From a virus (lineage: Duplodnaviria > Heunggongvirae > Uroviricota > Caudoviricetes), in IMG/VR virus record IMGVR_UViG_3300044715_000866: DNA of 64,000 nucleotides. The stretch is one strand, 5' to 3'. Below the pieces are notes generated by a model. That model saw only the letters and a list, made by a program, of their open reading frames with translations, had not been told where the DNA came from and did not search any database. Positions 15,031-64,000 of the stretch are shown here, in pieces; the first letter of the stretch is position 1; each line of letters starts with the position of its first letter. Both the position numbers and the translations under genes were made by a program.

Positions 15031-15035
15031 TCAAT

Positions 15036-15066
15036 AAAAAAGGCAGCCTAAGCTGCCTTTTTTATT
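15036..15066. terminator. Bidirectional rho-independent terminator between convergent genes.
   Basis: The sequence is aaaaa aggcagc ctaa gctgcct ttttt. It has a 7-bp GC-rich stem flanked by an A-run and a T-run. Confidence 0.7.
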
Positions 15067-20535: not shown

Positions 20536-20556
20536 TCAACATGAGTAATGGAGAAC

Positions 20557-20585
20557 TTGACATTCTCCATTACTTACTATATAAT
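20557..20585 (+). promoter_or_regulatory. Consensus sigma70-type promoter (TTGACA-N17-TATAAT) upstream of the clamp-loader gene. The -35 hexamer sits in the loop of a 10-bp hairpin (20546-20572).
   Basis: The sequence is taatggagaa cttgaca ttctccatta cttacta tataat. Confidence 0.6.
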
Positions 20586-22669: not shown

Positions 22670-24310
22670 ATGACTAACACTGATTGGGCAACTAATGTTG
22701 CCCTATCATCTTATACAGATGATGAATTTAATTTAGGTATTTGTGGATCGCATGACGCCTCAATTGCAATATCAAAAGGGAATAAAATCTTAGAAGTAGT
22801 TGAGATTGAAAAATTCACTGGAGAAAAACATGCTAATTTAATATTTAATACTGAAACACAAAAAGATATTAATAGCCACATTATTACCGAAGTATTAACT
22901 TACTTTAGACGCAAGTATCAAGCTAACACATATAACACTGTTTTTTGGAACTTGGTCTGTTACCACAACCAATGGTTAATGGATGACTTACCTACAGAAA
23001 TTAAAAACTTGTTCCCTTCGCGGAATTTTAAAAGATTTAGCCATCACTTATCACACGCATCAAGTGCATTTTATCAATCGCCGTATAATCGAGCATTAAT
23101 TATAACATTTGACGGCGGAAGCGATGAAGGATTATTAAATGTATATATCGGTAATGGAACTGACGATTTAATTCATTTATATAGTAATACTCGTAATTAC
23201 TGTGTTCCTTATGCAGTAATAGGCCATTTCATTTACGAGATTAAAAATGAACCAATCTATCAAATGGGGCAATTTACGTATCCGGGTAAAATGATGGGAT
23301 TAGCCGGGGACGGAGAAGTAGCTGACGATATTGAGCAAAATTTTACAAACTATTTCGAAGAAGTTGCAACTGCTAACTTACAAATACCTGAATTAATAGA
23401 TTGCTTTGCAAAACATATGAATATTTCAAATTCAGTACAGGCGAGTAAAAATACTGCAAAAACATTTGCCGCCACTGCTCAAGTAGTATTTGAAAAATTG
23501 CTACATGAAGAAATTGGTGGGTTCTTAAAGGCATCACACGGGTTGCCGATTGTGTTGTCAGGCGGTGGTGCATTGAACATTATAAACAATTCAAGAATAG
23601 CAAAATCTCATAAAGTATTTGTTCCGCCTAATCCGAATGATTCAGGGATTGCAATAGGATTGTTATGCAATGGTATTCGACCAAAAGAAAAGATAGATTG
23701 TGCATACCTTGGTCCAGACGCATTAGATAGCAGTACGTTAGAAGATGTTGTAGCGTTACGTAACGGCACTACTGTTGATCTAAATAAGCTTGCTGATAAT
23801 ATCATTGCAGGTAAAATTTATGGCGTAGTCCGAGGCCGATCTGAATGTGGGCCAAGAGCATTAGGTAATCGAAGTTTGATATGTAGTGCAATTATTCCTG
23901 AAATGAAAGATATCTTAAATTCTAAAATTAAAAATAGAGAAAGTTTTAGACCGTTTGCACCAGTTGTAAGATTAGAAGATGTTCACACATATTTTAAAAG
24001 TAAAGATGAATTAAGATTTATGTCATTTAATGTTGAAATTCATAAACAGTATGAATCACTATTATATGCAGTATCAAGTTCAGACAATACTGCTAGGGTA
24101 CAAACAATTACTCGAGAACAAAATGAATTCTTATACGATTTATTAACACTATTAGATAAAAAAGTCGGACATGGTATTTTGCTAAACACATCGTTTAATC
24201 TTGATGGAAAACCGATTTTAAACAAATATGCCGATGCATTAGACGTATTAGACACTAAAGATATAGACGGTGTAATCTTTGAAAATTATCTTATTGAAAA
24301 ATCAAAATGA
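22670..24310 (+). CDS. NodU/CmcH-family carbamoyltransferase.
   Basis: The N-terminal Kae1/YgjD-like block is LGICGSHDASIAI. The C-terminal hallmark GRSECGPRALGNRSLI matches GRxEFGPRALGNRS. The 546-aa length fits the family. Confidence 0.85.
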   Translation: MTNTDWATNVALSSYTDDEFNLGICGSHDASIAISKGNKILEVVEIEKFTGEKHANLIFNTETQKDINSHIITEVLTYFRRKYQANTYNTVFWNLVCYHNQWLMDDLPTEIKNLFPSRNFKRFSHHLSHASSAFYQSPYNRALIITFDGGSDEGLLNVYIGNGTDDLIHLYSNTRNYCVPYAVIGHFIYEIKNEPIYQMGQFTYPGKMMGLAGDGEVADDIEQNFTNYFEEVATANLQIPELIDCFAKHMNISNSVQASKNTAKTFAATAQVVFEKLLHEEIGGFLKASHGLPIVLSGGGALNIINNSRIAKSHKVFVPPNPNDSGIAIGLLCNGIRPKEKIDCAYLGPDALDSSTLEDVVALRNGTTVDLNKLADNIIAGKIYGVVRGRSECGPRALGNRSLICSAIIPEMKDILNSKIKNRESFRPFAPVVRLEDVHTYFKSKDELRFMSFNVEIHKQYESLLYAVSSSDNTARVQTITREQNEFLYDLLTLLDKKVGHGILLNTSFNLDGKPILNKYADALDVLDTKDIDGVIFENYLIEKSK

Positions 24311-24740: not shown

Positions 24741-24770
24741 ATAGCAGCTGATTCCTCAGCTGCTATATTC
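24741..24770. terminator. Bidirectional terminator hairpin between cd(+) and phoH(-).
   Basis: The sequence is agcagctga ttcc tcagctgct, a 9-bp stem. The flanking sequences are A-rich and T-rich, but the runs are short. Confidence 0.55.
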
Positions 24771-29648: not shown

Positions 29649-29677
29649 TTGACAGGTCAGGCATTGTATAGTATAAT
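29649..29677 (+). promoter_or_regulatory. Consensus sigma70-type promoter (TTGACA-N17-TATAAT) upstream of the dnaJ-like gene.
   Basis: The sequence is ttgaca ggtcaggcattgtatag tataat. Confidence 0.65.
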
Positions 29678-29714
29678 TACTATACAAACTGACCTTTTTT
29701 ATGAGAAATTAACC

Positions 29715-30595: not shown

Positions 30596-32896
30596 ATGGT
30601 CGAACCAAGCGAAAAACTACAAGCAATTTTTGACAAAGCTATTGCCGCAGCAAAAAACATGCATCATGAGTATGTAACACTTGAGCACGTATTGTTTTCA
30701 ATGCTCATGGAAGATGAAGGATTTACAAGTTCTTTACAGCATTTTGGTGCCGACACTACATTTTTAAAGAATACTGTACTAGATCATTTACAAACAAAAT
30801 GTCAAGAAATTACTACAGTTGACGTAGTAGTTAAACCTAAAAAAACTCAAGCTGTAGAACGCTCTTTAAATAGAGCGTTTACACAAGTGTTGTTTAACGG
30901 TGGCAATCGTATCGAACCAGCTGATTTTTTCTTAGCAATGCTAGGCGAGAAACGGTCATGGGCGTTTTATTATGTTGCACAGGTAAACATCACTAAAGAA
31001 AAGTATGCCGAGTATATACAAAATGTTACATCTGACGATGATGATGCAACAACAAGTTCAGTTAAACCTGGCTCACAAACACACAAAGCATTACAGGCGT
31101 ACACTACTAATTTAAACGAAGAAGTTAAAAATAACAAGATTGACCCAGTTATTGGTCGTGTAGACGAATTAGAACATATTGCGCTTGCGTTAGGACGTCG
31201 TAGTAAAAACAACGTTATTATGGTAGGTGATCCGGGTGTAGGTAAAACTGCAATTGCCGAAGGTCTTGCATATAACATTGTTAACGGTTCGGTTCCTGAA
31301 TTTTTAATAGATTACACTGTTTACAATTTAGATATTGCTGCTATGTTGGCAGGTTCTAAATACAGAGGCGACTTTGAAGAACGATTTAAACAAGTAATTA
31401 AGTCGTTACAGAAACTTGGTAAATGTGTACTATTCATTGACGAGGCCCATATGATTAGTGGTGCAGGTGCATCTGGTAATTCTTCTAATGATTTAGCTAA
31501 TATGATGAAGCCTGCACTTAGTAAAGGTAACATTAAAGTTATTGCAAGTACTACATGGGACGAATACCGTAAACACTTTGAAAAAGATCGTGCGTTAATG
31601 CGTAGATTCCAACGTATTACAGTTGACGAACCTACACAAGAAATGACTTTACAAATTCTTAAAGGTATTAAGAAGTACTACGAAGGTCATCACAAACTTA
31701 AAATTAAGGACGAAGCATTACAAGCGTCAATTAAATTATCTGTAAAATATCAAGCAGATAAAAAATTACCCGATAAAGCTATTGACTTAATTGATTGTGC
31801 TTGCTCACGGTTTAACTTAAAACTTGCAGATCAACGTGTAGTTACAGAAGCTGATATTCAGTTTGAATTAGCTAAAATGGTTAACATGCCAGTTGAACAG
31901 ATCATGCAAACTGAAACTAGTTCGCTAATTACATTGCAAGAAAAACTTGAAGCTGAAGTATTTGGTCAAGATACTGCATTAACTGAAATTGTTGACAAAA
32001 TTATGGTTGCACAAGCAGGATTAAAACCAGAAAACAAACCAATTGGTAGCTTTGTGTTTATGGGACCAACAGGGTGTGGTAAAACTGAAACAGCTAAAGC
32101 ACTTGCTAAACATTTAAATACTAAATTGTTACGTTTTGATATGTCAGAATATCAAGAGAAACACAGTATTAGCAAACTAATTGGCAGTCCTCCAGGTTAT
32201 GTAGGTTTTGAAGACAATGCAGGTTTGTTGATTACACAAATTCAAGAAAATCCAAATGCGGTATTGTTATTTGATGAGATTGAAAAATCACATCCTGATG
32301 TATCTACAGTGTTGTTACAAATGATGGACAACGGCTTTATTACAGGCTCAAATGGTAAACAAGCTGATTGCCGCCATATTGTATTAATTCTAACTACTAA
32401 TGCCGGTGCGCAATCTGCAGAAAAAAATCAAATTGGGTTTGGCTCTCAAGAAAAAGACTATTCAGATACTGATCTTAAGAAGTTTTTATCGCCTGAGTTC
32501 CGCAACAGACTAGATGGTGTTATTACGTTTAATAAGTTAGGAAAAGACACTATGGTTAAAGTTGTAAACAAGTTTATTGACGAAGTGCGTGAACAAGTTA
32601 AAGAAAAAGGCATTAAGATCAAAATTGATAAAGCTGCAACTAATTGGTTGTTAGACAACGGATTTGATGCTAAAATGGGTGCTAGACCATTACATCGCAT
32701 TATTGATAAAGAGATCAAACGTGATCTTGCTAAAATGATGTTGTTTGGTGATCTTAAATTAGGAGGATGGTTAACAGTAACAGTTGCAGATGATAAAATT
32801 GTACTTGTTTCTAAACCTAAAGCACTTAAAGTACCGTTACTTACTACAAAAGAAGTGTTAACATCAGACAACTTGTTTATTGAAGATGCTGATTAA
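30596..32896 (+). CDS. ClpA-like double-AAA+ chaperone/unfoldase (766 aa).
   Basis: Clp_N-like N-terminus. D1 Walker A GDPGVGKTA and D1 Walker B VLFIDEAH. D2 Walker A GPTGCGKTE, D2 Walker B LLFDEIEKSHPD and the sensor GARPLHR. There is no long M-domain, so it is ClpA-type rather than ClpB-type. Confidence 0.9.
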   Translation: MVEPSEKLQAIFDKAIAAAKNMHHEYVTLEHVLFSMLMEDEGFTSSLQHFGADTTFLKNTVLDHLQTKCQEITTVDVVVKPKKTQAVERSLNRAFTQVLFNGGNRIEPADFFLAMLGEKRSWAFYYVAQVNITKEKYAEYIQNVTSDDDDATTSSVKPGSQTHKALQAYTTNLNEEVKNNKIDPVIGRVDELEHIALALGRRSKNNVIMVGDPGVGKTAIAEGLAYNIVNGSVPEFLIDYTVYNLDIAAMLAGSKYRGDFEERFKQVIKSLQKLGKCVLFIDEAHMISGAGASGNSSNDLANMMKPALSKGNIKVIASTTWDEYRKHFEKDRALMRRFQRITVDEPTQEMTLQILKGIKKYYEGHHKLKIKDEALQASIKLSVKYQADKKLPDKAIDLIDCACSRFNLKLADQRVVTEADIQFELAKMVNMPVEQIMQTETSSLITLQEKLEAEVFGQDTALTEIVDKIMVAQAGLKPENKPIGSFVFMGPTGCGKTETAKALAKHLNTKLLRFDMSEYQEKHSISKLIGSPPGYVGFEDNAGLLITQIQENPNAVLLFDEIEKSHPDVSTVLLQMMDNGFITGSNGKQADCRHIVLILTTNAGAQSAEKNQIGFGSQEKDYSDTDLKKFLSPEFRNRLDGVITFNKLGKDTMVKVVNKFIDEVREQVKEKGIKIKIDKAATNWLLDNGFDAKMGARPLHRIIDKEIKRDLAKMMLFGDLKLGGWLTVTVADDKIVLVSKPKALKVPLLTTKEVLTSDNLFIEDAD

Positions 32897-41796: not shown

Positions 41797-41810
41797 CAAT
41801 ACGCTATTCT

Positions 41811-41838
41811 AAAAAAGGCAGCGTGTCTGCCTTTTTTT
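41811..41838 (+). terminator. Rho-independent terminator.
   Basis: The sequence is aaaaa aggcag cgtgt ctgcct ttttttt. Confidence 0.7.
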
Positions 41839-41859
41839 ACCTTCATTTTACCAAGTCAG

Positions 41860-41888
41860 TTGACACACTGAACAAACGAATATATAAT
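41860..41888 (+). promoter_or_regulatory. Consensus sigma70-type promoter (TTGACA-N17-TATAAT).
   Basis: The sequence is ttgaca cactgaacaaacgaata tataat. It lies immediately downstream of the terminator at 41811-41838. Confidence 0.65.
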
Positions 41889-53933: not shown

Positions 53934-54762
53934 GATATCAGAAATATTTTACTCTCTACAAGGAGAGGGTAGATTTATGGGAGTGCCAAGTGTGTTCCTT
54001 AGAACGTTTGGGTGCAATTTTTCTTGTAGAGGGTTTGGAATGCCAGCAGGTGAACTAAGTGTACAAGCAGATGCGATTGCTAATAATGGTATACAATATC
54101 ATTCATATGATGAACTACCATTAGTAACTACTGGCTGTGACAGTTATGCAAGTTGGCATCCAAAGTTTAAACATCTAAGTCCAGCGATGTCAATAGACGA
54201 AGTTGCAGCTAAAATGATTGAGCTGTTACCTAACGGTGAATGGGGTGGAGTACACTTAGTAATTACAGGCGGCGAACCATTATTACCAGGTTGGCAACAA
54301 ATATATCCAGAATTACTAAGACATCCATTATTAGCAGACTTAAAAAACATTACATTCGAAACTAATGGTACACAAGAACTGTTACAAGATTTTGAAAACT
54401 ACTTATACATGGAAAGACGGTATCAAACTACGTTTTCAGTTAGTCCTAAACTAAGTGTAAGTGGCGAGCCTAGAGAAAAGGCAATACGTCCTGAAATAGT
54501 AACCGAGTATCAGTTTTCAGGGCATAGTTCATTTTTAAAATTTGTAGTAGCATCTGAAGAAGACGTAGAAGAAGCGCGTGAAGTAATGCAGCTATATAAA
54601 GACAACGGATTTAGAGGTGATATTTACTTAATGCCAGTAGGCGGTGTAACTGATGTATACAACCTTAATAATCGACGAGTAGCAGAACTTGCATTAACGC
54701 ACGGATTGAGATACAGTGATAGACTTCACCTCCCTCTCTTCGGTAACAACTGGGGAACATAA
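53920..54762 (+). CDS. queE: 7-carboxy-7-deazaguanine synthase (radical-SAM QueE) with a long insertion inside the cluster-binding Cys motif.
   Basis: ISEIFYSLQGEGRFMGVPSVFLRTFGCNFSC aligns with QueE EIFxTIQGEGxxxGxPxxFVRxxGC. The third Cys (TGCDSY) lies about 38 residues downstream. Confidence 0.8.
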   Translation: MSKIKISEIFYSLQGEGRFMGVPSVFLRTFGCNFSCRGFGMPAGELSVQADAIANNGIQYHSYDELPLVTTGCDSYASWHPKFKHLSPAMSIDEVAAKMIELLPNGEWGGVHLVITGGEPLLPGWQQIYPELLRHPLLADLKNITFETNGTQELLQDFENYLYMERRYQTTFSVSPKLSVSGEPREKAIRPEIVTEYQFSGHSSFLKFVVASEEDVEEAREVMQLYKDNGFRGDIYLMPVGGVTDVYNLNNRRVAELALTHGLRYSDRLHLPLFGNNWGT

Positions 54763-55196
54763 TGTTTGGAAATTTTATAAAAAAAGTGTTTAGTGGTGAA
54801 AATCCAGAACTAAAACATCAACAAGAAGTACAAGAAGCAATTAAAGCTAAACAAAAAGCTAAACCTAAAGCAAAAGTTAAGCCAAAAGCTAAAGTAATTG
54901 AAAAAGAACCGCTAACTGACAAAGAAAAAGCTACCTTAAAACATGAACCATGGGTTGATGTAATTGGGTTTAAAGTTAATCCAAGTAACATTAGAAATGG
55001 TTTTTTTGAAATTGATTGGAATGATCACTGGATTGAAAAATTAAAACAAGAAGGGTATGGCTTTGACGGCGATCCTGAAGAAGAAATAGTAGGTCGTTGG
55101 TACAGAGATATTTGCACCAACGCTGCAGCAGCCGAAGGCATTGATATATCAGATCAGGACTTTGGATTCCTTAACGTTAACCGATCAGGCAACTAA
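54762..55196 (+). CDS. Hypothetical protein with a Lys-rich N-terminus (KAKQKAKPKAKVKPKAKV).
   Basis: TAATG-coupled ORF. Confidence 0.5.
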   Translation: MFGNFIKKVFSGENPELKHQQEVQEAIKAKQKAKPKAKVKPKAKVIEKEPLTDKEKATLKHEPWVDVIGFKVNPSNIRNGFFEIDWNDHWIEKLKQEGYGFDGDPEEEIVGRWYRDICTNAAAAEGIDISDQDFGFLNVNRSGN

Positions 55197-56182
55197 TGAC
55201 ATTTATTTTAGTAGATACTTCAAACTTATTTTATCGTGCAAGACATTCAGTGCAAGGTAGTGCCGATTTAAAACTTGGAATGGCATTGCACATTACATTT
55301 AATAGTGTTAAAAAAGCATGGCAAGACTTTGGAGGAGAACACGTAGTATTCTGTTTAGAAGGACGCAGCTGGCGTAAAGACTTTTACGAACCATATAAGA
55401 AAAATCGTGCAGTAACACGCGCTGCTATGACAGTAAGAGAACAAGAAGAAGATAAACTTTTTTGGGAGGCATACGGTGATTTTACAACATTCCTAAATGA
55501 AAAAACTAATTGCACAGTATTACAACATTCAAAGTTAGAGGCAGATGATTTAATTGCTGGATTTATTCAGATGCATCCGGAATCTAAACATGTTATTGTT
55601 AGTACAGATACTGACTTTCATCAATTGATTAGTGAAACTGTTAGTCAATATAACGGTGTAGCAGATCAACACGTTACTCACACCGGATATTATGATGCTA
55701 AAGGAAAACCTGTAATTGATAAGAAAACAGGCGAACACAAAGTACCATTTGATCCGGAATGGGTATTATTTGAAAAATGTATCCGCGGTGATACTAGCGA
55801 TAATGTGTTTTCAGCATATCCTGGTGCTAGAACCAAAGGCACTTCAAAGAAAGTCGGGTTAACTGAAGCGTTTGAAGATCGCAACACAAAAGGTTATTCG
55901 TGGAATAACTTTTTATTACAAAAATGGACTGATCATAATGGTCAAGAACATCGGGTATTAGACGATTATGAACGAAATCGCGTGCTAGTTGACTTAACTA
56001 AACAACCAGCAGAAATTCGGTCGTTTATTAACGAAACAATTAGTACTAATTCTAAACCTAAATGTATTACACAAGTTGGTTCACGCATGATTAAATTTTG
56101 TCAATCATATGATATGAAACGGATGATTGACAATATCCAACCATTTGCAGAACCGTTTCAAGCAAACTACCCAATAAAATAA
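55196..56182 (+). CDS. rnh: 5'-3' exonuclease / flap endonuclease (T4 RNase H family).
   Basis: The N-terminal PIN-like block ILVDTSNLFYRARH and the acidic clusters DTDFHQL and GDTSDNV match the FEN / T4 RNase H catalytic carboxylates. Confidence 0.85.
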   Translation: MTFILVDTSNLFYRARHSVQGSADLKLGMALHITFNSVKKAWQDFGGEHVVFCLEGRSWRKDFYEPYKKNRAVTRAAMTVREQEEDKLFWEAYGDFTTFLNEKTNCTVLQHSKLEADDLIAGFIQMHPESKHVIVSTDTDFHQLISETVSQYNGVADQHVTHTGYYDAKGKPVIDKKTGEHKVPFDPEWVLFEKCIRGDTSDNVFSAYPGARTKGTSKKVGLTEAFEDRNTKGYSWNNFLLQKWTDHNGQEHRVLDDYERNRVLVDLTKQPAEIRSFINETISTNSKPKCITQVGSRMIKFCQSYDMKRMIDNIQPFAEPFQANYPIK

Positions 56183-56184
56183 TT

Positions 56185-56385
56185 ATGAAAAAGATTACAA
56201 TACTAAAAGAAGAACTAATTGAAATATTAGCAGTACTAGACAAGTTTCCAGATGTAGAAAAGATTGATGTAGGGTATGATAACAATAGCGGTATTGGTTA
56301 CATATTAAATATTTCATTCCCATACGTAGTAAACGGTGTTGCTACTACTCAAACTGTTGAAATTACAGGTGTAGATCAATGGTAG
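56185..56385 (+). CDS. Hypothetical 66-aa protein.
   Basis: ORF. Confidence 0.45.
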   Translation: MKKITILKEELIEILAVLDKFPDVEKIDVGYDNNSGIGYILNISFPYVVNGVATTQTVEITGVDQW

Positions 56386-56861
56386 AAATTGAATTACACG
56401 CTAAACCTATTATTGATGGCAAATTTTGGATTGTTGAACAAGACGGTTTAAAAGTTGCTACACTGCATAAAAAAGAAAACAAATATGTGTTAAGTAATAT
56501 AGACGGTGAGATACTGTTTAATAAAAAAGAAGAAATAACTAATCAATTTGGATCTGATTTCTTCTTAACTAAACATAATATAAAAGTGTCTGCGGTTGAA
56601 ACAAATGAGTGTTATGGATATCCGACTAGTTGTAAACCGTATAACGCTATATACGACGTTAGACGCAAGTTACCACTGTTTACTAAAAGTGATCAAAGTA
56701 AAAGTCTGTACTGCGCCGGATATTATACTATTAAATTTGAAAAAGGATGGGTTAAAAGCTTCTGTCCTAAAGTAATTACTATAGAACGCAATGATCACAA
56801 AGGTCCGTTTAAAACGGAATTAGAAATGAAAATGGTACTAACTAATGCAAAATCAGATTAA
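56379..56861 (+). CDS. Hypothetical 160-aa protein.
   Basis: Coupled ORF. Confidence 0.5.
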   Translation: MVEIELHAKPIIDGKFWIVEQDGLKVATLHKKENKYVLSNIDGEILFNKKEEITNQFGSDFFLTKHNIKVSAVETNECYGYPTSCKPYNAIYDVRRKLPLFTKSDQSKSLYCAGYYTIKFEKGWVKSFCPKVITIERNDHKGPFKTELEMKMVLTNAKSD

Positions 56862-57093
56862 TTTAACACCAATAACACAATTTGCTCAGTTGTTACGTGC
56901 AACTGAGCTTTCTCAACAAAAAGAAGTTAAAATTCCAGTTCAACAAGCTAGATTACTTAACTTAGCACTAACTGAGATTTTAGATCAGCTTAATCAAGAT
57001 AACATTGCGCTACTTATTGAATTACGTAATCCATCTTCTCCTGAAATAGTAAACATAACTATGGATGGTGGCGGATTTAGCGAAGGCAACTAA
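56845..57093 (+). CDS. Hypothetical 82-aa protein.
   Basis: ORF. Confidence 0.45.
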   Translation: MQNQINLTPITQFAQLLRATELSQQKEVKIPVQQARLLNLALTEILDQLNQDNIALLIELRNPSSPEIVNITMDGGGFSEGN

Positions 57094-57125
57094 CGATAAA
57101 TACACGTAGTTAATAGGAGGACCTC

Positions 57126-57401
57126 ATGTCTCGACCCAAACCACGTGTATTATTAGAAAATCTTGACCCGAACACACTTCAATTAGATCAAATATTAGAA
57201 GCAGATGCTATTTGGGCGGTTGTTTATAAAGACGAACCATTTAATTTAAAGACAACTTCAAAACAACTCGGTTCTAAATATAAAAAATCGTCTTTTTCAA
57301 ATCCAGGTCATGCACACAACTTAGCAGAAAAGCTAAACACTACATTTAAATGCAGCGACTTCGCTGTTGTAAAGCTAACTAAAGGGGTTACAGTGCGATG
57401 A
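57126..57401 (+). CDS. Hypothetical 91-aa protein.
   Basis: Strong RBS aggagg. Confidence 0.55.
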   Translation: MSRPKPRVLLENLDPNTLQLDQILEADAIWAVVYKDEPFNLKTTSKQLGSKYKKSSFSNPGHAHNLAEKLNTTFKCSDFAVVKLTKGVTVR

Positions 57402-57781
57402 TTCTACGCGACACACTAACACGCATATTTTTAGACCAATGGGGAAAGTGTTCTGACGACACTAACGTAAAACTATACTCTCGCAAATGGTGGCAATCCT
57501 CGCGTGTAGGAAAACAAACTGCTTACAGGTTAAGTGAAGATGGGTTTGAGTTTTTAACTAACACATTAGAACTCAAATCATACGAAATCCCATTTACAGA
57601 TACAATTGAGATAAGTCCGCAGACTATTGTGTTCTTAGAACGGTATTTAGATTGTCCTTATTACTTAACATATAAAAGTATAACAGTGTTCTCAGAACGC
57701 AAATGCGTTGAACTATATTTCTTTTCAGATGACATACGACGATTTGGATTAGCGAAAGCAATGAAAGAACGAACTTCTTAA
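57398..57781 (+). CDS. Hypothetical 127-aa protein.
   Basis: ATGA-coupled ORF. Confidence 0.5.
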   Translation: MILRDTLTRIFLDQWGKCSDDTNVKLYSRKWWQSSRVGKQTAYRLSEDGFEFLTNTLELKSYEIPFTDTIEISPQTIVFLERYLDCPYYLTYKSITVFSERKCVELYFFSDDIRRFGLAKAMKERTS

Positions 57782-57794
57782 TTAAAAATAAGTC

Positions 57795-57822
57795 TTGACG
57801 TTTGCTAAAAATACTGTATAAT
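57795..57822 (+). promoter_or_regulatory. Sigma70-type promoter (TTGACG-N16-TATAAT) upstream of the MoxR gene, with a ~95-nt leader.
   Basis: The sequence is ttgacg tttgctaaaaatactg tataat. Confidence 0.6.
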
Positions 57823-57917
57823 ATGCTACATAGTTTGTTAGCAACACAACATATTAACACTGCTACAAGTTATTTAATTTACTTTTTCTTTTTTACTAAC
57901 CTATGAGGTAATAATTT

Positions 57918-59009
57918 ATGAGCAACAACATCGCATCACGTACAGTCGGGCCAAAAGGCGCTAAAAAATCTTTACGCAAAGCATTTAGCAGCAAACGTCC
58001 ATTGTTTATTTGGGGACCTCCAGGAATTGGTAAATCAGATATTATTAAACAACTTGGTACCGAGTTAAATGCTCATGTTACTGACGTGCGTTTAAGTTTA
58101 TGGGAACCAACAGACATCAAAGGTATTCCATACTTTGACTCAGTAGATCAAACAATGGTATGGGCTCCACCATCAGAGTTACCAAGCAAATCATTTGCTG
58201 AAAAACACAAAATGATTATTTTGTTCTTAGATGAGATGAATTCTGCTGCACCGAGTGTACAGGCTGCTGCTTATCAGCTTATTTTAAACCGTCGCGTAGG
58301 TCAGTACGAATTACCAGACAACGTTGTTATTGTTGCTGCTGGTAACAGAGAAACAGACAAAGGTGTTACTTATCGTATGCCAGCTCCATTAGCTAACAGA
58401 TTTATCCACTTAGAAATGGCTGTTGAATGGGATGACTACTTTGAATGGGCCACAGACAACAATGTACATCCAGATGTTGTTGGTTATTTAACTGCTTGCA
58501 AAAGTGATTTATACACTTTTGATTCAAAATCAGCAGATAGAGCGTTTGCTACACCACGTTCATGGAGCTTTGTTAGCGAGTTGTTAACAGACGGCGATAC
58601 TGACTCAGACACACTAGCTGACTTAGTTGCTGGTTCAATTGGTGAAGGGCTTGCTATTAAATTTATGGCACACAGACAGTTTTCAAGTAAACTTCCTGAT
58701 CCACGCGCTGTACTTGAGGGTAAAATTACACATTGTGAAACTAAAGAGATTTCAGCAATGTATTCACTAACTGTTAGTATGTGCTATGAGTTGAAAGAAC
58801 TTTTCAATAAAAAGGCTGCTAACAAAAACACAGCAATGAACAATTACTTTTTGTTTATGATGAACAACTTTGAAACTGAAATTGCAATTATGGGTACTAA
58901 ACTTGCGTTATGCTCATACAAATTGCAAATTGATCCAGACGACATTGCGTGCTTTGATGATTTCCACAGCAAGTACGGCAAATACATTACTGCTGCAAGC
59001 GGTCAGTAA
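57918..59009 (+). CDS. MoxR-family (AAA_5) ATPase.
   Basis: Walker A is FIWGPPGIGKSD. Walker B is IILFLDEMN. The sensor is VVIVAAGN. The 363-aa length is typical of MoxR/CbbQ/NorQ/CobS-like ATPases. Confidence 0.85.
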   Translation: MSNNIASRTVGPKGAKKSLRKAFSSKRPLFIWGPPGIGKSDIIKQLGTELNAHVTDVRLSLWEPTDIKGIPYFDSVDQTMVWAPPSELPSKSFAEKHKMIILFLDEMNSAAPSVQAAAYQLILNRRVGQYELPDNVVIVAAGNRETDKGVTYRMPAPLANRFIHLEMAVEWDDYFEWATDNNVHPDVVGYLTACKSDLYTFDSKSADRAFATPRSWSFVSELLTDGDTDSDTLADLVAGSIGEGLAIKFMAHRQFSSKLPDPRAVLEGKITHCETKEISAMYSLTVSMCYELKELFNKKAANKNTAMNNYFLFMMNNFETEIAIMGTKLALCSYKLQIDPDDIACFDDFHSKYGKYITAASGQ

Positions 59010-59020
59010 TACCAAAACAG

Positions 59021-59049
59021 TTGACACCGCCGCAAGGCGGTGTTATACT
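59021..59049 (+). promoter_or_regulatory. Sigma70-type promoter (TTGACA-N17-TATACT) upstream of the HExxH-vWA gene. Its spacer is a GNRA-capped hairpin.
   Basis: The sequence is ttgaca ccgccgcaaggcggtgt tatact. Confidence 0.55.
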
Positions 59050-59060
59050 TTGTACTTTAT
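59024..59060 (+). terminator. Terminator-like hairpin with a GNRA loop and a U-rich tail, overlapping the promoter at 59021-59049.
   Basis: The sequence is acaccgcc gcaa ggcggtgt tatactttgtactttat. Confidence 0.45.
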
Positions 59061-59079
59061 AATTATGCAGGAGTAATTC

Positions 59080-60258
59080 ATGGCTTTAGATTCAATTGTT
59101 GATAAAATTATCGTAGCTCGCGTAGGCTTACTATTACGCCATCCTTTCTTTGGTACTATGGCAACACGTTTAAAAATTGTAGACGGATCCGACTGGTGTC
59201 CAACTGCAGCAACTGACGGTCGTCATATCTTTTATAATCGTGAGTTCTTTGAACCGTTAACTGTAAAACAAATTGAATTTGTTATTGGTCATGAAATCCT
59301 ACACAACGTTTTTGATCACATGTCACGTCGTGATGGTCGCAATCCTAAAATCTTTAATATTGCATGTGACTATAATGTAAATGGTCAGTTAATTCGTGAT
59401 AAGATTGGCGAAGTTCCGCCTGTTATTAAAATCTTCCACGACACTAACTATTACGGTATGGGTTCTGAAGAGATATATGATAAGTTACTAGAAGATCACG
59501 ATGAAGATTCACTTTCTAAAATTGGTGAGATGCTTGACGAACATATTGACTGGGAAAGTTCAGGGTCAAACGGTCGTCCATCATACAGTAAAGAAGAATT
59601 GAAAAAGATTCGTGATGAAATTCGTGAAGCTACAATGACTGCAGCACAAGCAGCAGGTGCAGGTAATACTCCAGCTAGTATTGCACGTTTAATTAAAGAT
59701 CTTACTGAGTCTAAAATGAACTGGCGTGAGATTTTACGTCAGCAAATACAAAGTACTCTTAAAAATGACTTTTCGTTTATGCGTCCTAACAGAAAAGGTT
59801 GGCACATGAATGCAATTTTGCCAGGTACTAACTATGACGAAACAATTGATATCTGTGTTGCAATTGATATGTCAGGGTCAATTGGCGATGATCAAGCTAG
59901 AGATTTCTTAAGTGAGATTAAAGGCATCATGCAAGAGTATCAGGACTTTAGCATTAAGTTATGGTGCTTTGATACACAAGTTTATAACGAGGCATCATTT
60001 ACTGGTTATACTATAAGCGAGTTTGATGAGTATCAACCAAAAGGTGGCGGTGGTACTGACTTTGATGCTAACTGGGAATATATGAAAGAAAATGACATTA
60101 ATCCTAAAAAGTTCCTATGTTTTACTGATGGGTATCCTTTTGGAAGCTGGGGCGATGAGTCGTATTGCGATACTGTGTTTATTATACACGGTAATGATAC
60201 AATCGTAGCCCCATTTGGTGAAACTTGCTATTACGAGTTTTCAAAAGAAAAGGCATAA
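59080..60258 (+). CDS. Putative zinc-metallopeptidase-like (HExxH) domain fused to a C-terminal von Willebrand factor A domain (DUF2201-type).
   Basis: FVIGHEILHNVFDH is the HExxH motif. CVAIDMSGSIGDD is the MIDAS DxSxS of a vWA domain. It is the classic genomic partner of a MoxR ATPase. Confidence 0.8.
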   Translation: MALDSIVDKIIVARVGLLLRHPFFGTMATRLKIVDGSDWCPTAATDGRHIFYNREFFEPLTVKQIEFVIGHEILHNVFDHMSRRDGRNPKIFNIACDYNVNGQLIRDKIGEVPPVIKIFHDTNYYGMGSEEIYDKLLEDHDEDSLSKIGEMLDEHIDWESSGSNGRPSYSKEELKKIRDEIREATMTAAQAAGAGNTPASIARLIKDLTESKMNWREILRQQIQSTLKNDFSFMRPNRKGWHMNAILPGTNYDETIDICVAIDMSGSIGDDQARDFLSEIKGIMQEYQDFSIKLWCFDTQVYNEASFTGYTISEFDEYQPKGGGGTDFDANWEYMKENDINPKKFLCFTDGYPFGSWGDESYCDTVFIIHGNDTIVAPFGETCYYEFSKEKA

Positions 60259-60546
60259 ATGGCACTAAAAAATGGAAAACCTAATCCATTAGATTATTTT
60301 AAAATGCGGAGAGTAGATTTTGCTTGTCCGCATTTTGAATACTTTACTATTAATAAATCAAGAACGGATTTACTCGAATTTATTAATGAATGGATTACTA
60401 AAAACTTAAATAGCAGATACTACATTGGAAAAGGAATTTCATTAGATAGTAATAACGCTATTGTTTACAACATTACAATTGGGTTTGAATCAGAAAAAGA
60501 ACTTAGCTTTTTCACAATTGCATGCCCATATTTACATTCAAGATAA
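60259..60546 (+). CDS. Hypothetical 95-aa protein.
   Basis: ORF starting right after the upstream stop. Confidence 0.45.
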   Translation: MALKNGKPNPLDYFKMRRVDFACPHFEYFTINKSRTDLLEFINEWITKNLNSRYYIGKGISLDSNNAIVYNITIGFESEKELSFFTIACPYLHSR

Positions 60547-60578
60547 TTAATTATATTACACTAACAGAGGAAAATAAC

Positions 60579-60818
60579 ATGACCGAAACTACACAAGAAG
60601 CAGTACAAGAAACCGCAGCAGAAGCAACTCAAGAACAAGCAGGTGCTGATCTTACTATTAACGATTTAAATGCGTTAAAAACTATTATTGACATTGCAAG
60701 TTCACGTGGTGCATTTAAACCAAATGAAATGGTTGCTGTAGGACAAACATATACAAAATTGGATACATTTTTAACAGCAGTTACTGATCAAGCTAAAGCA
60801 GCGCAAGGTGCTCAATAA
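60579..60818 (+). CDS. Hypothetical acidic 79-aa protein.
   Basis: RBS agagga before the ATG at 60579. The track's 60522 start is an extension. Confidence 0.45.
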   Translation: MTETTQEAVQETAAEATQEQAGADLTINDLNALKTIIDIASSRGAFKPNEMVAVGQTYTKLDTFLTAVTDQAKAAQGAQ

Positions 60819-61483
60819 TGGCAGAACTTAAACATGTTGGAAGAGTTAAAGCTTCTGGCAAAAAATGTATAGTAGCATATCGCACCCTACCAGGCGATGC
60901 GTACAATTGCTTAATTGTACCTACTGAAAATTTGCCAGACAGCTATCACGATGCACTTATTAACTTAGTTGAAAGTTCAAGTGGTCAGGCTTCGTATGAA
61001 TTTGCAGAAGCAATGGCACGCACTAACTTTCCAGATGGCAGTATCATGCTTGCTGCGTTGCACACTCAAGATAGATTAGTTAAAGTTTCAACTGATCAAA
61101 TTGAAATGTTACCAACTAATTCGTACACAATTTTGTTGTCTGAACTAAATCAAGTTATTGCAGAACAACGTGGCACTACAGTTGATGAGCTATCTCTTAA
61201 ATCTACAGTTAAAATAGAACAACCTACTAAACCTGTAGTTAAAGAAACTCCGGCTGAGGCAAAAGCGGCACTTGTTGAACTATTGACTCCCGAGCAAAAA
61301 GCTAAACACTATCGTTCAGAAGCAGATCGTCTTTCAAAAGAAGCTGCATCTTTACGTAGACAGGCTGAAGAATTAGTACCAACTGCTAAAAAAGTTAAAA
61401 CTGAAACTGTAGCAGAAGAAGTAGTAACTACCACTACAGCAAAAAAGGAAAAAGTTGTTAAAACAGACGAAACCGCTTCCTAA
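60818..61483 (+). CDS. Hypothetical 221-aa protein with a C-terminal coiled coil.
   Basis: TAATG-coupled ORF. Confidence 0.55.
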   Translation: MAELKHVGRVKASGKKCIVAYRTLPGDAYNCLIVPTENLPDSYHDALINLVESSSGQASYEFAEAMARTNFPDGSIMLAALHTQDRLVKVSTDQIEMLPTNSYTILLSELNQVIAEQRGTTVDELSLKSTVKIEQPTKPVVKETPAEAKAALVELLTPEQKAKHYRSEADRLSKEAASLRRQAEELVPTAKKVKTETVAEEVVTTTTAKKEKVVKTDETAS

Positions 61484-61775
61484 AGAAGTAGTTGCACACT
61501 GGCCAGAAGTATTTGAAGAGGTAACACTTAATGTGTTACCTCTTCTTTATTTGCATTCAGTAGTTATTAATTTTAAAGATAATAAGTCTTGGGAAATAAA
61601 ATTAACAACTAAAATAAAAAAAGATGGATGGAATAGCTTTCAACAGAGTTTATCAGAATTGTTAAATTCGTATGAAGAACAGATAGACGATGTAGATTTT
61701 AAACTGGATGCAGCAAAAGTAAAAAAAGATGTAGAAAAACTAACCAATAAATTTTTAAAGAAACAAAAATTATGA
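61455..61775 (+). CDS. Hypothetical ~106-aa protein; the TTG start is doubtful.
   Basis: ORF overlapping the upstream gene by 29 nt with no ATG near the 5' end. Confidence 0.35.
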   Translation: MLKQTKPLPKEVVAHWPEVFEEVTLNVLPLLYLHSVVINFKDNKSWEIKLTTKIKKDGWNSFQQSLSELLNSYEEQIDDVDFKLDAAKVKKDVEKLTNKFLKKQKL

Positions 61776-62539
61776 ACATTAAATTAGTATCATATTCTCA
61801 ACCAACTGAAGAATTTGCTGAATTAGGAATTACTGATGCACAAGAACTTATTGCGTTTTGCGCTCGGGTAAGTAATCCGTCAAATCAGTTTAATACAGAA
61901 ACTTCAGAAAAACTTATCAACTACTTAATTAAACATAAACATTGGTCACCGCTTGAAATGGTTAATGTGTGTTTAGAAATTAATACCACCCGCGATATTG
62001 CACGTCAATTACTACGTCACGCTTCATTTAGATTCCAAGAGTTTAGTCAACGCTATGCAGATCCAACAAACGATCTGTCTTTTGAAATACGCGATGCTAG
62101 ATTTCAAGATCCTAAAAATCGTCAAAATTCAATTACAATTAATACTGCAGAAGAAGAGGCAATTAATGATGAATGGCATCTAAGACAAGAAGCTCATATT
62201 AATTCAGCAAAAGCACAATATGAATGGGCAATTAGCAAAGGTATTGCTAAAGAACAAGCTCGTGTCGTTCTTCCAGAAGGCAATACTAAAAGTCGTGTGT
62301 ATGTTAACGGGACGTTGCGCTCATGGATTCACTACATACAAGTGCGCAGTAACGTGGATACACAGCTTGAACACAAACAAGTTGCTGTAGCATGTGCGCA
62401 AGCAATTAGCGCAGTATTTCCAATGGTAAATGACTTTGTTTATAAGGAAGAACCAGTTTTAGAACCTATTAAAGAAGAAATTGTTGAACCTAAAAAACTT
62501 AAATGGCATCAACACTTTTTTAATTTTTACAAACACTAA
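61772..62539 (+). CDS. thyX: ThyX-family flavin-dependent thymidylate-synthase homologue with a degenerate RHR motif.
   Basis: HKHWSPLEM aligns with the ThyX HxSxxEH block. LRHASFRFQEFSQRY fits the RHRx7SxR signature spacing, but the third Arg is Ala. Length is 255 aa. Confidence 0.6.
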   Translation: MNIKLVSYSQPTEEFAELGITDAQELIAFCARVSNPSNQFNTETSEKLINYLIKHKHWSPLEMVNVCLEINTTRDIARQLLRHASFRFQEFSQRYADPTNDLSFEIRDARFQDPKNRQNSITINTAEEEAINDEWHLRQEAHINSAKAQYEWAISKGIAKEQARVVLPEGNTKSRVYVNGTLRSWIHYIQVRSNVDTQLEHKQVAVACAQAISAVFPMVNDFVYKEEPVLEPIKEEIVEPKKLKWHQHFFNFYKH

Positions 62540-62544
62540 TCACA

Positions 62545-62572
62545 ACAAAGCCGGCAATTGCCGGCTTTATCA
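62545..62572. terminator. Bidirectional terminator (perfect palindrome) between convergent thyX-like(+) and the Gly-rich gene(-).
   Basis: The sequence is aaagccggcaattgccggcttt, flanked by A-rich and T-rich sequence. Confidence 0.65.
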
Positions 62573-62595
62573 TTTGTACTACTTTTTACTAACTG

Positions 62596-64000
62596 CTATA
62601 CTGAATGTTTCCATGGATTACGTGTATTCCACACAACTGCACCTGCACTGTTTTTAATATCAGCACCACCATAGCCATAATAGCCAGCATTAAATACAAT
62701 TTTAACAATTATATTAAGTGTTGTTGGAATTGGGATGGCGCTATTCCAATTGCCGCTAGTTGGAATGTGTGTCCATGACACTCCGTTATTATCAGTCAAA
62801 ACAATACTACCAGCTTGATGATCAACAATAACTGCGCGTAATACCATACCAGTTGTTACTAATATGTTCAAATCTTCCCAGTACAATGCCGGAATCCACG
62901 GCTGTGTTGACCAGTCTGCCTTTGGATATACCCAATACGATGTATAACCATCAGTCGCTCTATCTGATATATACGAACCTAAATTATACGCCGCTGGCGG
63001 TATCGACGGTACTGCTGGTGTTGTTGGATATGTTGCTTTTCCAGTTGGTATTACTGCTGTATTAGTTGGTACAGATGGCCCCCACGAAATTCGTACTTTA
63101 GCAGGTTGTCCCGCCGTTCCAGAACCAAGTGTTGGTTTTATATAAGAACCGGGTGATCTAGTTGTCCAAAGATAATTGGCATCTGAAGCTATCTCATCAA
63201 CCCTACGACGTAACGTTACAGCTATACCAACAGTCTTACACACATTTGCTGTATTTTTAAACCATTTATAGGAAAGTGTAATTCTATTATTCCATTCAGC
63301 TGCTAGCGTAATGTTATAAGTTGTTACTTTCTTTGTTCCATCCCACGGTGTTGTAGTATCACCTACTGATACAAAACCGTAACCGTCTGTCCATATGTCT
63401 AAAATATAGTCTCCTTGCGGTATAGGCTGTCCTGCCGTTACCGCAGGACCATTCTGAACTTGCGGTTTTGTTTTGCTACTTACTACATTAGGCCATGATA
63501 CAAAGAATGCGTCAGTACGTGTCGTAGCATCTGGCGGAGCAATTGCATGATCTGTAAAGAATCTTGGTATACCATAAGTCTTACCTTTAATTATAATAGT
63601 CGTAGTATCGCTTGATCCTTCCTGCGGTGTTGCTGCAATTAACTGCACACCGGCGCCGCCTAATCCGCCGCCGTTTGGAATATATACAAAACAACTTTCT
63701 GGCGGAACATACGAGTTACCACCAGTGCCCCCATTTCGAGATACTGCATTAGGAGATTTATTATATGCTTGTTTATCAACTAAACCGCCTCCGCCGCCGC
63801 CGCCACCTGAACCAGGGCTAGCTTTAGCATTAGCAGACACGCCAGCAGAAACATAAGTTGCTGCATATTTACCTATAAGCTGAACACCAGTTGAACCAGG
63901 GGTGCCCGGTAACGTTCCATTCAATCTCCCTGCACCGCCACCACCTGCGCCGCCAACTGTTACCCATGGGGTGTTGGTTAGTGGTTTTTTATTAGTTCCT
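62596..64000 (-). CDS. Gly-rich structural-like protein, partial. The N-terminus lies beyond the window end.
   Basis: The minus-strand frame is open from 64000 down to the stop at 62596-62598. Poly-Gly runs (SGGGGGGGG) and Thr/Pro/Gly-rich segments are present. The track's start at 63924 is a TTG, and the frame continues upstream without a stop. Confidence 0.6.
   Translation of the reverse strand, partial: GTNKKPLTNTPWVTVGGAGGGGAGRLNGTLPGTPGSTGVQLIGKYAATYVSAGVSANAKASPGSGGGGGGGGLVDKQAYNKSPNAVSRNGGTGGNSYVPPESCFVYIPNGGGLGGAGVQLIAATPQEGSSDTTTIIIKGKTYGIPRFFTDHAIAPPDATTRTDAFFVSWPNVVSSKTKPQVQNGPAVTAGQPIPQGDYILDIWTDGYGFVSVGDTTTPWDGTKKVTTYNITLAAEWNNRITLSYKWFKNTANVCKTVGIAVTLRRRVDEIASDANYLWTTRSPGSYIKPTLGSGTAGQPAKVRISWGPSVPTNTAVIPTGKATYPTTPAVPSIPPAAYNLGSYISDRATDGYTSYWVYPKADWSTQPWIPALYWEDLNILVTTGMVLRAVIVDHQAGSIVLTDNNGVSWTHIPTSGNWNSAIPIPTTLNIIVKIVFNAGYYGYGGADIKNSAGAVVWNTRNPWKHSV

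Follow-up and report, generated by a model that had tools for sequence, protein, structure and literature searches.

A conserved MoxR ATPase and metallopeptidase-vWA gene pair with a PeSL-type promoter and stem-loop cassette at its junction in an uncultured jumbo phage

The window analysed here is a stretch of 64,000 nucleotides from a jumbo phage, uncultured and about 370 kb in size, whose relatives in IMG/VR are found on contigs of 356-372 kb. Near its right end lie a gene for a MoxR-class AAA+ ATPase and a gene for a metallopeptidase-vWA protein of the DUF2201 type, each preceded by a promoter of the sigma-70 type. The second of these promoters shares its DNA with a stem-loop. The features of the locus are as follows.

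57795..57822, + strand: sigma-70-type promoter of the ATPase gene (TTGACG 57795-57800, 16-nt spacer, TATAAT 57817-57822)
57823..57917, + strand: 95-nt stretch from the -10 element to the ATG of the ATPase gene, T-rich, with a GAGG Shine-Dalgarno sequence at 57905-57908
57918..59009, + strand: MoxR-class AAA+ ATPase, 363 aa, assigned from Pfam, PHROGs and invariant catalytic motifs
59021..59049, + strand: PeSL-type composite element (-35 TTGACA, spacer stem-loop, extended -10 TGT-TATACT at 59041-59049)
59024..59043, + strand: 3'-terminal hairpin of the ATPase transcript, a putative terminator or attenuator (ACACCGCC 59024-59031, GCAA loop, GGCGGTGT 59036-59043)
59080..60258, + strand: DUF2201 protein, 392 aa, N-terminal zincin-like metallopeptidase and C-terminal vWA domain
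60259..62568, + strand: remainder of the unit predicted to be transcribed from the second promoter, with putative ThyX and four small ORFs, up to a bidirectional terminator at 62547-62568
61772-62539, + strand: putative ThyX, named by eye from its translation

The surroundings of the pair consist of replication and nucleotide-metabolism genes with early-type promoters. The ORFs in 60259..62568 are closely packed, and the intergenic DNA between them has neither promoter nor terminator. The DNA polymerase of the phage belongs to family B and is nearest to those of Phosso, Atu_ph07 and Rak2-like jumbo phages; at 42-49% identity to these, its sequence places the phage outside the T4 subfamily. A 3835-aa ORF had prompted the idea of an N4-like phage with vRNAP hairpin promoters. 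This reading was rejected because the family B DNA polymerase is closest to those of jumbo phages and the relatives lie on contigs of 356-372 kb. A megablast search of the region against the phage collection gave no match, and relatives were recovered at the protein level and in IMG/VR only.

The ATPase matches the Pfam families AAA, AAA_3 and AAA_5, each over its cut-off (AAA_3, 29.3 bits against 27; AAA_5, 27.2 bits against 22), and matches phrog_1297 at 1.2e-94. Walker A (G33-S40, nt 58014-58037), D105 of Walker B (nt 58230-58235), N143, R144 and R161 show no variation among 25 relatives, and E106 shows almost none. The best PDB sequence match is to midasin AAA domains (1e-7), and the best compact fold matches are to NorQ (TM 0.50-0.55), obtained with an AlphaFold model of pLDDT 66 that has low-confidence stretches at residues 60-86 and 145-153. 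The protein is an AAA+ ATPase of the MoxR/midasin/NorQ class, and its homologues include N4 gp24, the PA5oct ATPase (locus tag EST35_0335) and, presumably, ASV44729.1 of Atu_ph07.

The vWA protein matches Pfam DUF2201_N at 3.4e-40, the DUF2201 VWA-like domain at 2.6e-14 and phrog_1314 at 1.8e-108. Its HEILH motif occupies residues 71-75 (nt 59290-59304), and 24 relatives all keep H71, E72 and H75 as well as the MIDAS residues D263-x-S265-x-S267, T326 and D350 (DMSGS at nt 59866-59880). The only hit in the PDB sequence and profile searches is a marginal one, in which the profile of the protein weakly matches the minigluzincin MJ1213 (0.017). The C-terminal part weakly resembles vWFA folds in an AlphaFold model of pLDDT 57. 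The low pLDDT of both models arises because the alignments covered only 74-96% identity, and the fold matches of the two proteins are suggestive, lending weak support. The protein is a homologue of N4 gp25 and of ASV44728.2 of Atu_ph07. The gene beside the ATPase thus encodes a DUF2201 vWA domain with an intact DxSxS...T...D motif, as is characteristic of a MoxR partner. The earlier note had named the pair a MoxR ATPase with an HExxH/vWA partner of the DUF2201 type, and the Pfam, PHROGs and midasin/NorQ matches together with the invariant motifs bear this out.

Homologues of each protein occur in about 800-850 phage records, including PA5oct, Phosso, Atu_ph07, 121Q and N4-like and rV5-like phages. 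The two genes stand side by side in Phosso, Atu_ph07 and 121Q; in PA5oct about 3 kb separate them. In PHROGs and in many GenBank records, the DUF2201 peptidase-vWA protein carries the label "HNH endonuclease", a widely propagated misannotation. Group 2.2 jumbo phages are already known to carry a pair of MoxR and metallopeptidase-vWA proteins (Iyer et al. 2021, PMC7824862). The Atu_ph07 match to the present vWA protein is ASV44728.2, with ASV44729.1 encoded beside it, and these are the two examples given in that work; they share domain architecture and gene order with the present pair. The likeness was measured for the vWA protein, at 38% identity across 98% of the length. There is no substantive difference between the group 2.2 pair and this one, and the present phage is a new lineage with the same pair. 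In N4-like phages (Schitoviridae), gp24 and gp25 (vWFA) are core genes of the middle class (PMC4193335). N4 gp25 is homologous to the present vWA protein at about 24-29% identity, and a match from a Roseovarius phage is labelled "N4 gp25-like protein". Both pairs are linked and are expressed, the present one by prediction, before the late genes; however, the N4 pair is transcribed by N4's own RNA polymerase II, whereas the present pair stands behind sigma-70-type promoters. Phage-encoded MoxR-vWA pairs with an HExxH motif, pointed out in the earlier note, had been catalogued before, both by Iyer et al. and as N4 gp24/gp25.

The cellular pairs NorQ-NorD, CbbQ-CbbO and RavA-ViaA resemble the present one in that a MoxR-class AAA+ protein is encoded beside a vWA/MIDAS partner, but the sequence similarity is limited to the AAA+ core. 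To our knowledge, the cellular vWA partners NorD, CbbO and ViaA have no N-terminal HExxH domain. The clients of cellular MoxR-vWA pairs are metalloenzymes such as NOR and Rubisco. By analogy with these pairs, the ATPase would probably form a hexamer, onto which the vWA domain would dock via its MIDAS site. Remodelling driven by ATP may then hand a client protein to the fused peptidase or set it free. What is established is the identity of the domains and the integrity of the catalytic motifs; the mechanism is modelled on the cellular systems.

As to the client, the one proposal in print names a virion protein or another protein of phage assembly, with proteolytic processing (Iyer et al. 2021, PMC7824862). 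The setting among replication genes, the early-type promoters and the middle-gene status of N4 gp24/gp25 fit a virion-assembly role only loosely. The same three points would suit an anti-defence or host-takeover device, in which the ATPase-loaded peptidase cleaves a host protein early in infection rather than virion proteins, and MoxR-vWA modules are known from bacterial conflict systems (PMC7159879). Such a device is nevertheless unlikely. The pair belongs to the core genes of N4-like and many jumbo phages and is vertically conserved over very different phage families, whereas counter-defence genes are usually patchy. PADLOC gave weak matches to the generic core of the ATPase (DolB, 2e-4) and none to the vWA protein, and the anti-phage or anti-defence context that had been suggested for the pair thus finds no support. 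In addition, the GenBank record of the PA5oct ATPase carries the note "ESI-MS/MS", the method used in the PA5oct paper for virion-linked products, a pointer taken from the record note only. There is next to no chance that the pair belongs with the CobS/CobT-type cobaltochelatase auxiliary modules of marine T4-like phages, the known class to which the earlier note allowed that it might belong: CobS is likewise an AAA+ protein of the MoxR/AAA_5 class, CobT has a vWA domain and the ATPase weakly matches the CobS-type phrog_249 (1.9e-5), but phrog_1297 and phrog_1314 match better by about 90 orders of magnitude, CobS_N, CobT and CobT_C are absent among the returned Pfam matches, the NCBIfam chelatase models give no match, and the partner here carries a DUF2201 HExxH domain, which CobT, as far as we know, does not have.

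Both promoters of the pair score 11/12 and are the top two sites in 54000-64000. The second consists of TTGACA (59021-59026), a 17-nt spacer and TATACT (59044-59049), with TG before the -10 element. Five 12/12 sites occur in the window, all of them on the coding strand and upstream of genes, against an expected mean of 0.2 and a maximum of 2 in 200 simulated sequences. The promoter-like sites as a class exceed chance. Nearly all relatives with upstream sequence carry TTGAC(A/G/T)-N16/17-TATAAT in front of the ATPase gene, and the related phage PA5oct depends on host RNA polymerase and has TTGAC/TATAATA promoters.

The 95 nt that the earlier note had given as the leader of the ATPase gene do separate its -10 element from the ATG; the leader proper is predicted to be about 89 nt long, with a start site about 7 nt past the -10 element, and has no predicted structure. 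The 95-nt length is kept in relatives of at least 83% identity and falls to roughly 40-65 nt in the 75% group. An Rfam search of the leader gave no match, its fold is no better than that of shuffled sequences (z = +0.65), and RNAalifold returned -2.3 kcal/mol with no compensatory pairs, the one feature being a weak long-range helix, CATAG.../...CTATG, beside the Shine-Dalgarno sequence. A riboswitch or sRNA was rejected on the Rfam, z and covariation results. A leader peptide was rejected as well, since the predicted start site comes after the ATG at 57823, whose frame is broken in relatives, for example in L005.

The ATPase and vWA genes are joined in the order TAA (59007-59009), TACCAAAACAG, cassette, GGAG (59070-59073) and ATG (59080). 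An 8-bp hairpin capped by GCAA exactly fills the 17-nt spacer of the second promoter, so that the GNRA-capped hairpin previously placed between its -35 and -10 elements is indeed there, and the intergenic fold has z = -2.45. Among the IMG/VR relatives, 39 of 40 distinct versions of the junction have the cassette, with TATAAT or TATACT as the -10 element. The stem arms alternate between CCGCC/GGCGG, CCTCC/GGAGG, CCACC/GGTGG, GGACC/GGTCC and GGGAC/GTCCC. Nevertheless, all 208 of 208 cells of the stem are paired, with double changes at four pairs (29 cells). The covariation score is 0.383 compared with 0.073 for shuffled alignments, none of 500 of which reaches 0.383, and controls slid along the alignment stay at or below 0.105. 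To judge from these comparisons, selection maintains the stem-loop as a structure. In 30 of the 40 distinct versions the loop is UNCG or GNRA, which suggests that selection acts on the RNA; the mean dG of the hairpins is -14 kcal/mol.

The tract that follows the stem is weak, TATACTTT with 5 T in 8; across the versions it has 4-5 T in 8 nt, the remainder being mostly A, and there is no canonical U-run. In relative L021 the hairpin is kept and GTTTTT takes the place of the -10 hexamer, giving a canonical terminator. Canonical hairpin and T-run terminators occupy the same site in Phosso, PA5oct and Atu_ph07, and a terminator hairpin follows the ATPase gene in these three phages and in 121Q. The hairpin, which had been described as doubling as a terminator, does look like one from its stem covariation and the canonical terminators at the site. 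The compensatory stem changes and the RNA-type tetraloops are clean comparative evidence that backs the terminator reading.

Composite elements of this kind are known as promoter-early stem-loops (PeSLs) of T4-type phages (Arbiol et al. 2010, PMC2839356; Comeau et al. 2014, PMC4122927). They have been reported from RB49/phi1, T4/PST and KVP40/nt-1, and a stem-loop between the -35 and -10 elements is among their two commonest layouts. Reporter assays have shown both terminator and promoter activity: the drop in lacZ expression caused by one tested PeSL stem-loop was similar to that given by rrnB T1, and PeSL promoters were very strong (PMC2839356; PMC4122927). The present cassette fits the PeSL kind, having a near-consensus intergenic promoter, a stem-loop in the spacer, an A/T-rich stretch with a stop, and a Shine-Dalgarno sequence with a start codon. 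In the PeSL genomes, as in the present window, other copies place the stem-loop over the -35 element, over the -10 element or upstream. A stem-loop is found on 4 of about 10 strong promoters of the 64-kb window (20542-20585, 29649-29702, 41810-41888 and 59021-59049). The cassette also occurs at further gene junctions: in related phages it lies at the junction of a lipoprotein gene and ahead of a tRNA cluster. The architecture that had been regarded as unusual is therefore one already described, with other PeSL subclasses in the same window.

There are differences in setting. Published PeSLs come from T4-type phages and are mainly reported beside variable orphan genes in hyperplastic regions (PMC2839356; PMC4122927), whereas the present copy, in an uncultured jumbo phage, has a conserved gene on either side. 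Its position is fixed throughout a clade of 74-99% protein identity, with compensatory stem changes, features that PMC2839356 and PMC4122927 do not appear to report. PeSL-type terminator-in-promoter cassettes are thereby extended from cultured T4-type phages to an abundant uncultured clade of jumbo phages of about 370 kb. The locus probably combines two separate and ordinary things, a conserved phage gene pair and a PeSL-type cassette between its members; both parts are already known, neither the gene pair nor the kind of cassette being new.

On the model of the tested PeSLs of RB49 and phi1, termination and initiation at the present copy would proceed as follows. The host sigma-70 RNA polymerase would start at the first promoter and transcribe the ATPase gene. 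Once TTG-ACA-arm-loop-arm-UGU has been transcribed, the nascent RNA would fold into a hairpin of 8-10 bp and about -14 kcal/mol. Three of its pairs come free, since the ACA of the -35 element can pair with the TGT of the extended -10 element. The RNA-DNA hybrid would then lie over the -10 region, which consists of A and U only, and the transcript would be ended or attenuated, with a stable tetraloop hairpin left as its 3' terminus. The near-consensus extended -10 promoter in the same DNA would restart transcription about 7 nt downstream, and the restarted transcript would span the vWA gene and the next five genes, through ThyX. The partner genes would thus become separate, insulated expression units within a gap of 70 nt. 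With so poor a T-tract (4-5 T in 8), termination may be only partial. The vWA gene of L021 lies behind a canonical terminator without a visible promoter of its own; read-through is thus implied, and at least the L021 version would be leaky. No observation at the locus supports the regulated read-through proposed earlier.

The hairpin may instead act mainly as a stabiliser of the mRNA 3' end or a processing barrier, where read-through is followed by trimming back to the tetraloop hairpin, which would shield the ATPase message from 3' exonucleases. The poor U-tract and the need for read-through to express the L021 vWA gene speak for such a role. So do the stable C(UUCG)G hairpins of T4 intergenic regions, one of which lends stability to the mRNA of gene 32 (Tuerk et al. 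1988, as cited in PMC8948821 and PMC4371310). The T4 hairpins share with the present type short G+C stems, C-G closure, a tetraloop cap and a location between phage genes, but the present hairpin sits exactly within a promoter spacer and has a GNRA loop (GCAA), whereas the T4 loops are UUCG. Stabilisation as the main role is improbable, however, because L021, Phosso, PA5oct and Atu_ph07 have canonical terminators in the same place and the tested PeSL stem-loop ended transcription about as well as rrnB T1 (PMC2839356). The stabiliser and terminator roles are not mutually exclusive.

It is far less probable that the palindrome works at the DNA level, as the operator of a dimeric repressor or as a cruciform controlling the second promoter, although this would supply the regulated expression suspected in the earlier note. 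An inverted repeat in a promoter spacer is in a classical operator position, and the position of the element is strictly conserved. However, the arms vary freely and stay complementary, whereas an operator would conserve its sequence; RNA-specific stable tetraloops, UNCG and GNRA closed by a C-G pair, are over-represented among the loops; and the hairpin outlasts the loss of the -10 hexamer in L021. Moreover, a G+C-rich stem of 8 bp closed by a loop of 4 nt is ill suited to extruding as a cruciform.

Returning to the terminator reading, a transcription stop is predicted at the MoxR/vWA junction in the present clade and in Phosso, PA5oct, Atu_ph07 and 121Q. We regard it as a tentative and rather doubtful idea that this stop is an ancient, selected feature of the module. 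If it is, the stop could uncouple dosage or timing, for example by placing the peptidase-vWA protein under control apart from the ATPase hexamer, and the hairpin would have been folded into the promoter in the present clade because the -35 ACA and the extended -10 TGT are complementary. The present PeSL would then be a fixed regulatory device between core genes rather than a mobile shuffling cassette, and PeSL-type elements would reach well beyond the T4 subfamily. The practical value of the locus is modest. The pairing of the -35 ACA with the extended -10 TGT is a compact design rule that could be reused in synthetic constructs.

The two genes of the MoxR–vWA pair are laid out in the window as follows.

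57918-59009, + strand: MoxR-class ATPase gene (363 aa; Pfam AAA, AAA_3 and AAA_5 above cut-offs)
59080-60258, + strand: DUF2201 peptidase-vWA gene (392 aa; Pfam DUF2201_N, 3.4e-40; DUF2201 VWA-like domain, 2.6e-14)

Among aligned relatives, the ATPase retains Walker A (G33-S40), Walker B (D105, E106), N143, R144 and R161, and the vWA protein retains both HEILH (residues 71-75) and the full MIDAS set (D263-x-S265-x-S267, T326 and D350). With the Pfam matches and these motifs present, the identification of a MoxR ATPase and an HExxH/vWA partner in the earlier note is right. Among solved structures, midasin AAA domains come closest to the ATPase in sequence, and NorQ subunits of NorQ-NorD complexes are the best compact fold matches to its model (TM ~0.5; model pLDDT 66). 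For the vWA protein the model is of low quality (pLDDT 57), and only a weak match to vWFA domains is seen in the C-terminal half of this model. A CobS/CobT identity, which would have made the genes cobaltochelatase auxiliaries, is not supported: Pfam CobS/CobT domains are not matched, phrog_249 (CobS-type) scores 1.9e-5 versus 1.2e-94 for phrog_1297, and the NCBIfam chelatase models give no match to the gene pair. A defence or anti-defence context had also been raised, and a PADLOC search gave no match of weight. PHROGs (phrog_1314) and many GenBank phage records tag the DUF2201 protein as 'HNH endonuclease' or 'homing endonuclease'. Pfam detects no HNH domain in it, and the label looks like a propagated misannotation.

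MoxR/peptidase-vWA pairs are a known feature of jumbo and N4-like phages, and the present gene pair is of this kind. Homologues of each protein are found in ~800-850 phage records. The closest are in PA5oct-like phages (50% and 45% identity for the two proteins), followed by Phosso (41% and 43%); more remote ones are in Atu_ph07, where the vWA-protein homologue is ASV44728.2 and directly adjoins ASV44729.1, in Rak2-like phages such as 121Q, in CBB and in Bacillus phage G. N4-like podoviruses and phages of ~137 kb follow at 24-29% identity, one match being annotated "N4 gp25-like protein". N4-like phages share 14 core genes, gp24 and gp25 (vWFA domain) among them; in N4 both are middle genes (PMC4193335). 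In Phosso, Atu_ph07, 121Q and the present clade the ATPase gene directly adjoins the vWA gene; in PA5oct (L082 2764-5525) the two are ~3 kb apart, with three small ORFs and a gene for a putative homing endonuclease between them. A virion-assembly role with proteolytic processing has been proposed for the pair (Iyer et al. 2021, PMC7824862). No experimental work on this phage pair turned up in a literature search. In GenBank the PA5oct ATPase carries the note ESI-MS/MS, the method by which the PA5oct authors detected products linked to virion particles.

The window has a G+C content of 35%, and its DNA polymerase is of family B, with 42-49% identity to those of Phosso, Atu_ph07 and Rak2-like jumbo phages. 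Megablast against the phage collection found no relative of the window. Searching IMG/VR with the ATPase sequence gave 551 relatives, 80 of which were retained as loci (74-99% identity). Several of these 80 are on contigs of 356-372 kb, indicating that the clade is one of uncultured jumbo phages.

Each gene of the pair is preceded by a promoter-like site, and no other site in the final 10 kb of the window scores as high as these two.

57795-57822, + strand: site 1, upstream of the ATPase gene, TTGACG-16-TATAAT
59021-59049, + strand: site 2, upstream of the vWA gene, TTGACA-17-TATACT

This promoter class clearly exceeds chance: five perfect 12/12 sites are observed in the window versus 0.2 expected, all on the coding strand and upstream of genes. 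In most strong promoters ATA(T)ACATA stands right after the -10 hexamer, and the ATPase leaders of all relatives share an ACATAG..GTTAG..CAAC motif in the early transcribed region (window 57823-57860); such shared motifs may be part of a promoter or start-site consensus. The related phage PA5oct depends on host RNA polymerase and has TTGAC/TATAATA promoters, which agree with the TATAAT-ATA(T)ACATA consensus of the present promoters. The -10 hexamer of site 1 and the ATG are 95 nt apart, a greater distance than the 21-32 nt at the other strong promoters in the window. Relatives of at least 83% identity retain this length; in the 75% group it is about 40-65 nt. The leader has no Rfam match, its predicted fold is no more stable than that of shuffled sequence (z = +0.65), and its consensus fold among relatives reaches -2.3 kcal/mol with compensatory changes absent. 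Nothing in these results marks the leader as more than a long, T-rich 5' UTR.

The hairpin reported in the second promoter, ACACCGCC-GCAA-GGCGGTGT (59024-59043), is present; it is GNRA-capped and fills the 17-nt spacer between the -35 and -10 hexamers of site 2 exactly. Among the IMG/VR relatives the ATPase-to-vWA spacer occurs in 40 distinct versions, and 39 of these share one layout, in which TTGACA is followed by a 5-nt arm, a tetraloop, a second 5-nt arm complementary to the first, TGT, and finally TATAAT or TATACT. The arms vary together (CCGCC/GGCGG, CCTCC/GGAGG, CCACC/GGTGG, GGACC/GGTCC and GGGAC/GTCCC), and the three outer pairs of the stem join ACA of the -35 hexamer to a TGT that doubles as the extended -10. 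In a set of 26 representative sequences, every one of the 208 pair cells holds a standard pair, and four of the five variable stem pairs show double changes (29 cells). The stem covariation score is 0.383 versus 0.073 for shuffles, none of 500 reaching 0.383, and slid partners give at most 0.105. UNCG or GNRA loops, mostly C(UUCG)G, cap 30 of the 40 distinct versions, a signature of a stable RNA hairpin that would be unexpected for a protein operator. The sole exception to the layout, L021 (5092-5136; IMGVR_UViG_3300043410_001892, 372 kb), keeps the hairpin, has GTTTTT at the -10 position and ATGACA at the -35 position, and so reads as a textbook terminator without a promoter. Its vWA gene lies behind this canonical terminator with no promoter of its own visible. 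In more distant phages, too, a terminator directly follows the ATPase gene: a hairpin and TTGTTTG in Phosso, with a separate promoter 25 nt later; a hairpin and T-run in both PA5oct and Atu_ph07; and TTGACA, then a hairpin, then TTTTATC in 121Q. On this evidence the stem-loop, at the 3' end of the ATPase transcript, is under selection for its structure, and the present clade has it merged into the next promoter.

An intergenic element of this layout is of a known kind, and we assign it to the PeSLs (promoter-early stem-loops), the combined terminator/promoter cassettes of T4-type phages. The architecture that the earlier note called unusual has thus been described already; the rest of that observation was accurate, the ORFs, both promoter-like sites and the spacer hairpin being found as described. 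Arbiol et al. 2010 (PMC2839356) distinguished five PeSL subclasses by stem-loop position, found that one PeSL stem-loop was roughly as effective as rrnB T1 in lowering lacZ expression, and reported promoters so strong that clones acquired promoter mutations. Comeau et al. 2014 (PMC4122927) extended PeSLs to T4/PST and KVP40/nt-1. Three further composites in the window are, by their predicted folds and hexamers, other PeSL subclasses.

20542-20585: -35 hexamer in the hairpin loop; fold z = -5.8
29649-29702: -10 hexamer inside the hairpin, then T6; fold z = -4.8
41810-41888: 12/12 promoter with a classical terminator 22 nt before it; fold z = -3.0

A scan of related phages for the cassette pattern gave at least 120 matches. 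Among the matches listed, 109 are at the ATPase/vWA junction, ten are at the junction of a membrane-protein gene with a lipoprotein gene, with covarying arms in the form TTGACA-hairpin-TGTTATAMT (loci L083, L088, L124, L130, L142, L145, L155, L168, L173 and L194), and one is directly upstream of a tRNA-Ser/Met/Leu cluster (L151 6315-6343). The occurrence of PeSLs in a clade of uncultured jumbo phages, the fixation of one copy between two conserved genes and the clear covariation in the stem of the ATPase/vWA cassette are new, each of modest interest.

The promoter consensus is conserved, the covarying RNA-type hairpin is conserved and placed for transcription only from upstream, and canonical terminators stand at the same site in other lineages. 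By analogy with tested PeSLs, host sigma-70 polymerase would start at 57795-57822 or further upstream, and formation of the hairpin over the A/U-only -10 region would end or attenuate the upstream transcript. A new transcript would then start from near 59056 and run through the vWA gene, then four small ORFs and a putative ThyX gene, as far as a predicted bidirectional terminator (62547-62568). Of the 8 nt that follow the stem only 4-5 are T, and expression of the L021 vWA gene would require read-through; termination may therefore be partial. The proposal of regulated read-through fared less well, as nothing points to a regulated switch.

Elsewhere in the window, a 442-aa ORF with a run of eight glycines (62596-63924, - strand) has no PHROG match. 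A single 3835-aa ORF (2641-14148, - strand) diverges from + strand genes starting at 14229, and a carbamoyltransferase of 546 aa (22670-24310) and a ClpA/ClpB-like double AAA+ protein of 766 aa (30596-32896) are encoded further on. G+C-rich hairpins with flanking A-runs and T-runs lie between convergent genes at 62547-62568, 24741-24766 and 15035-15064 and look like bidirectional terminators.
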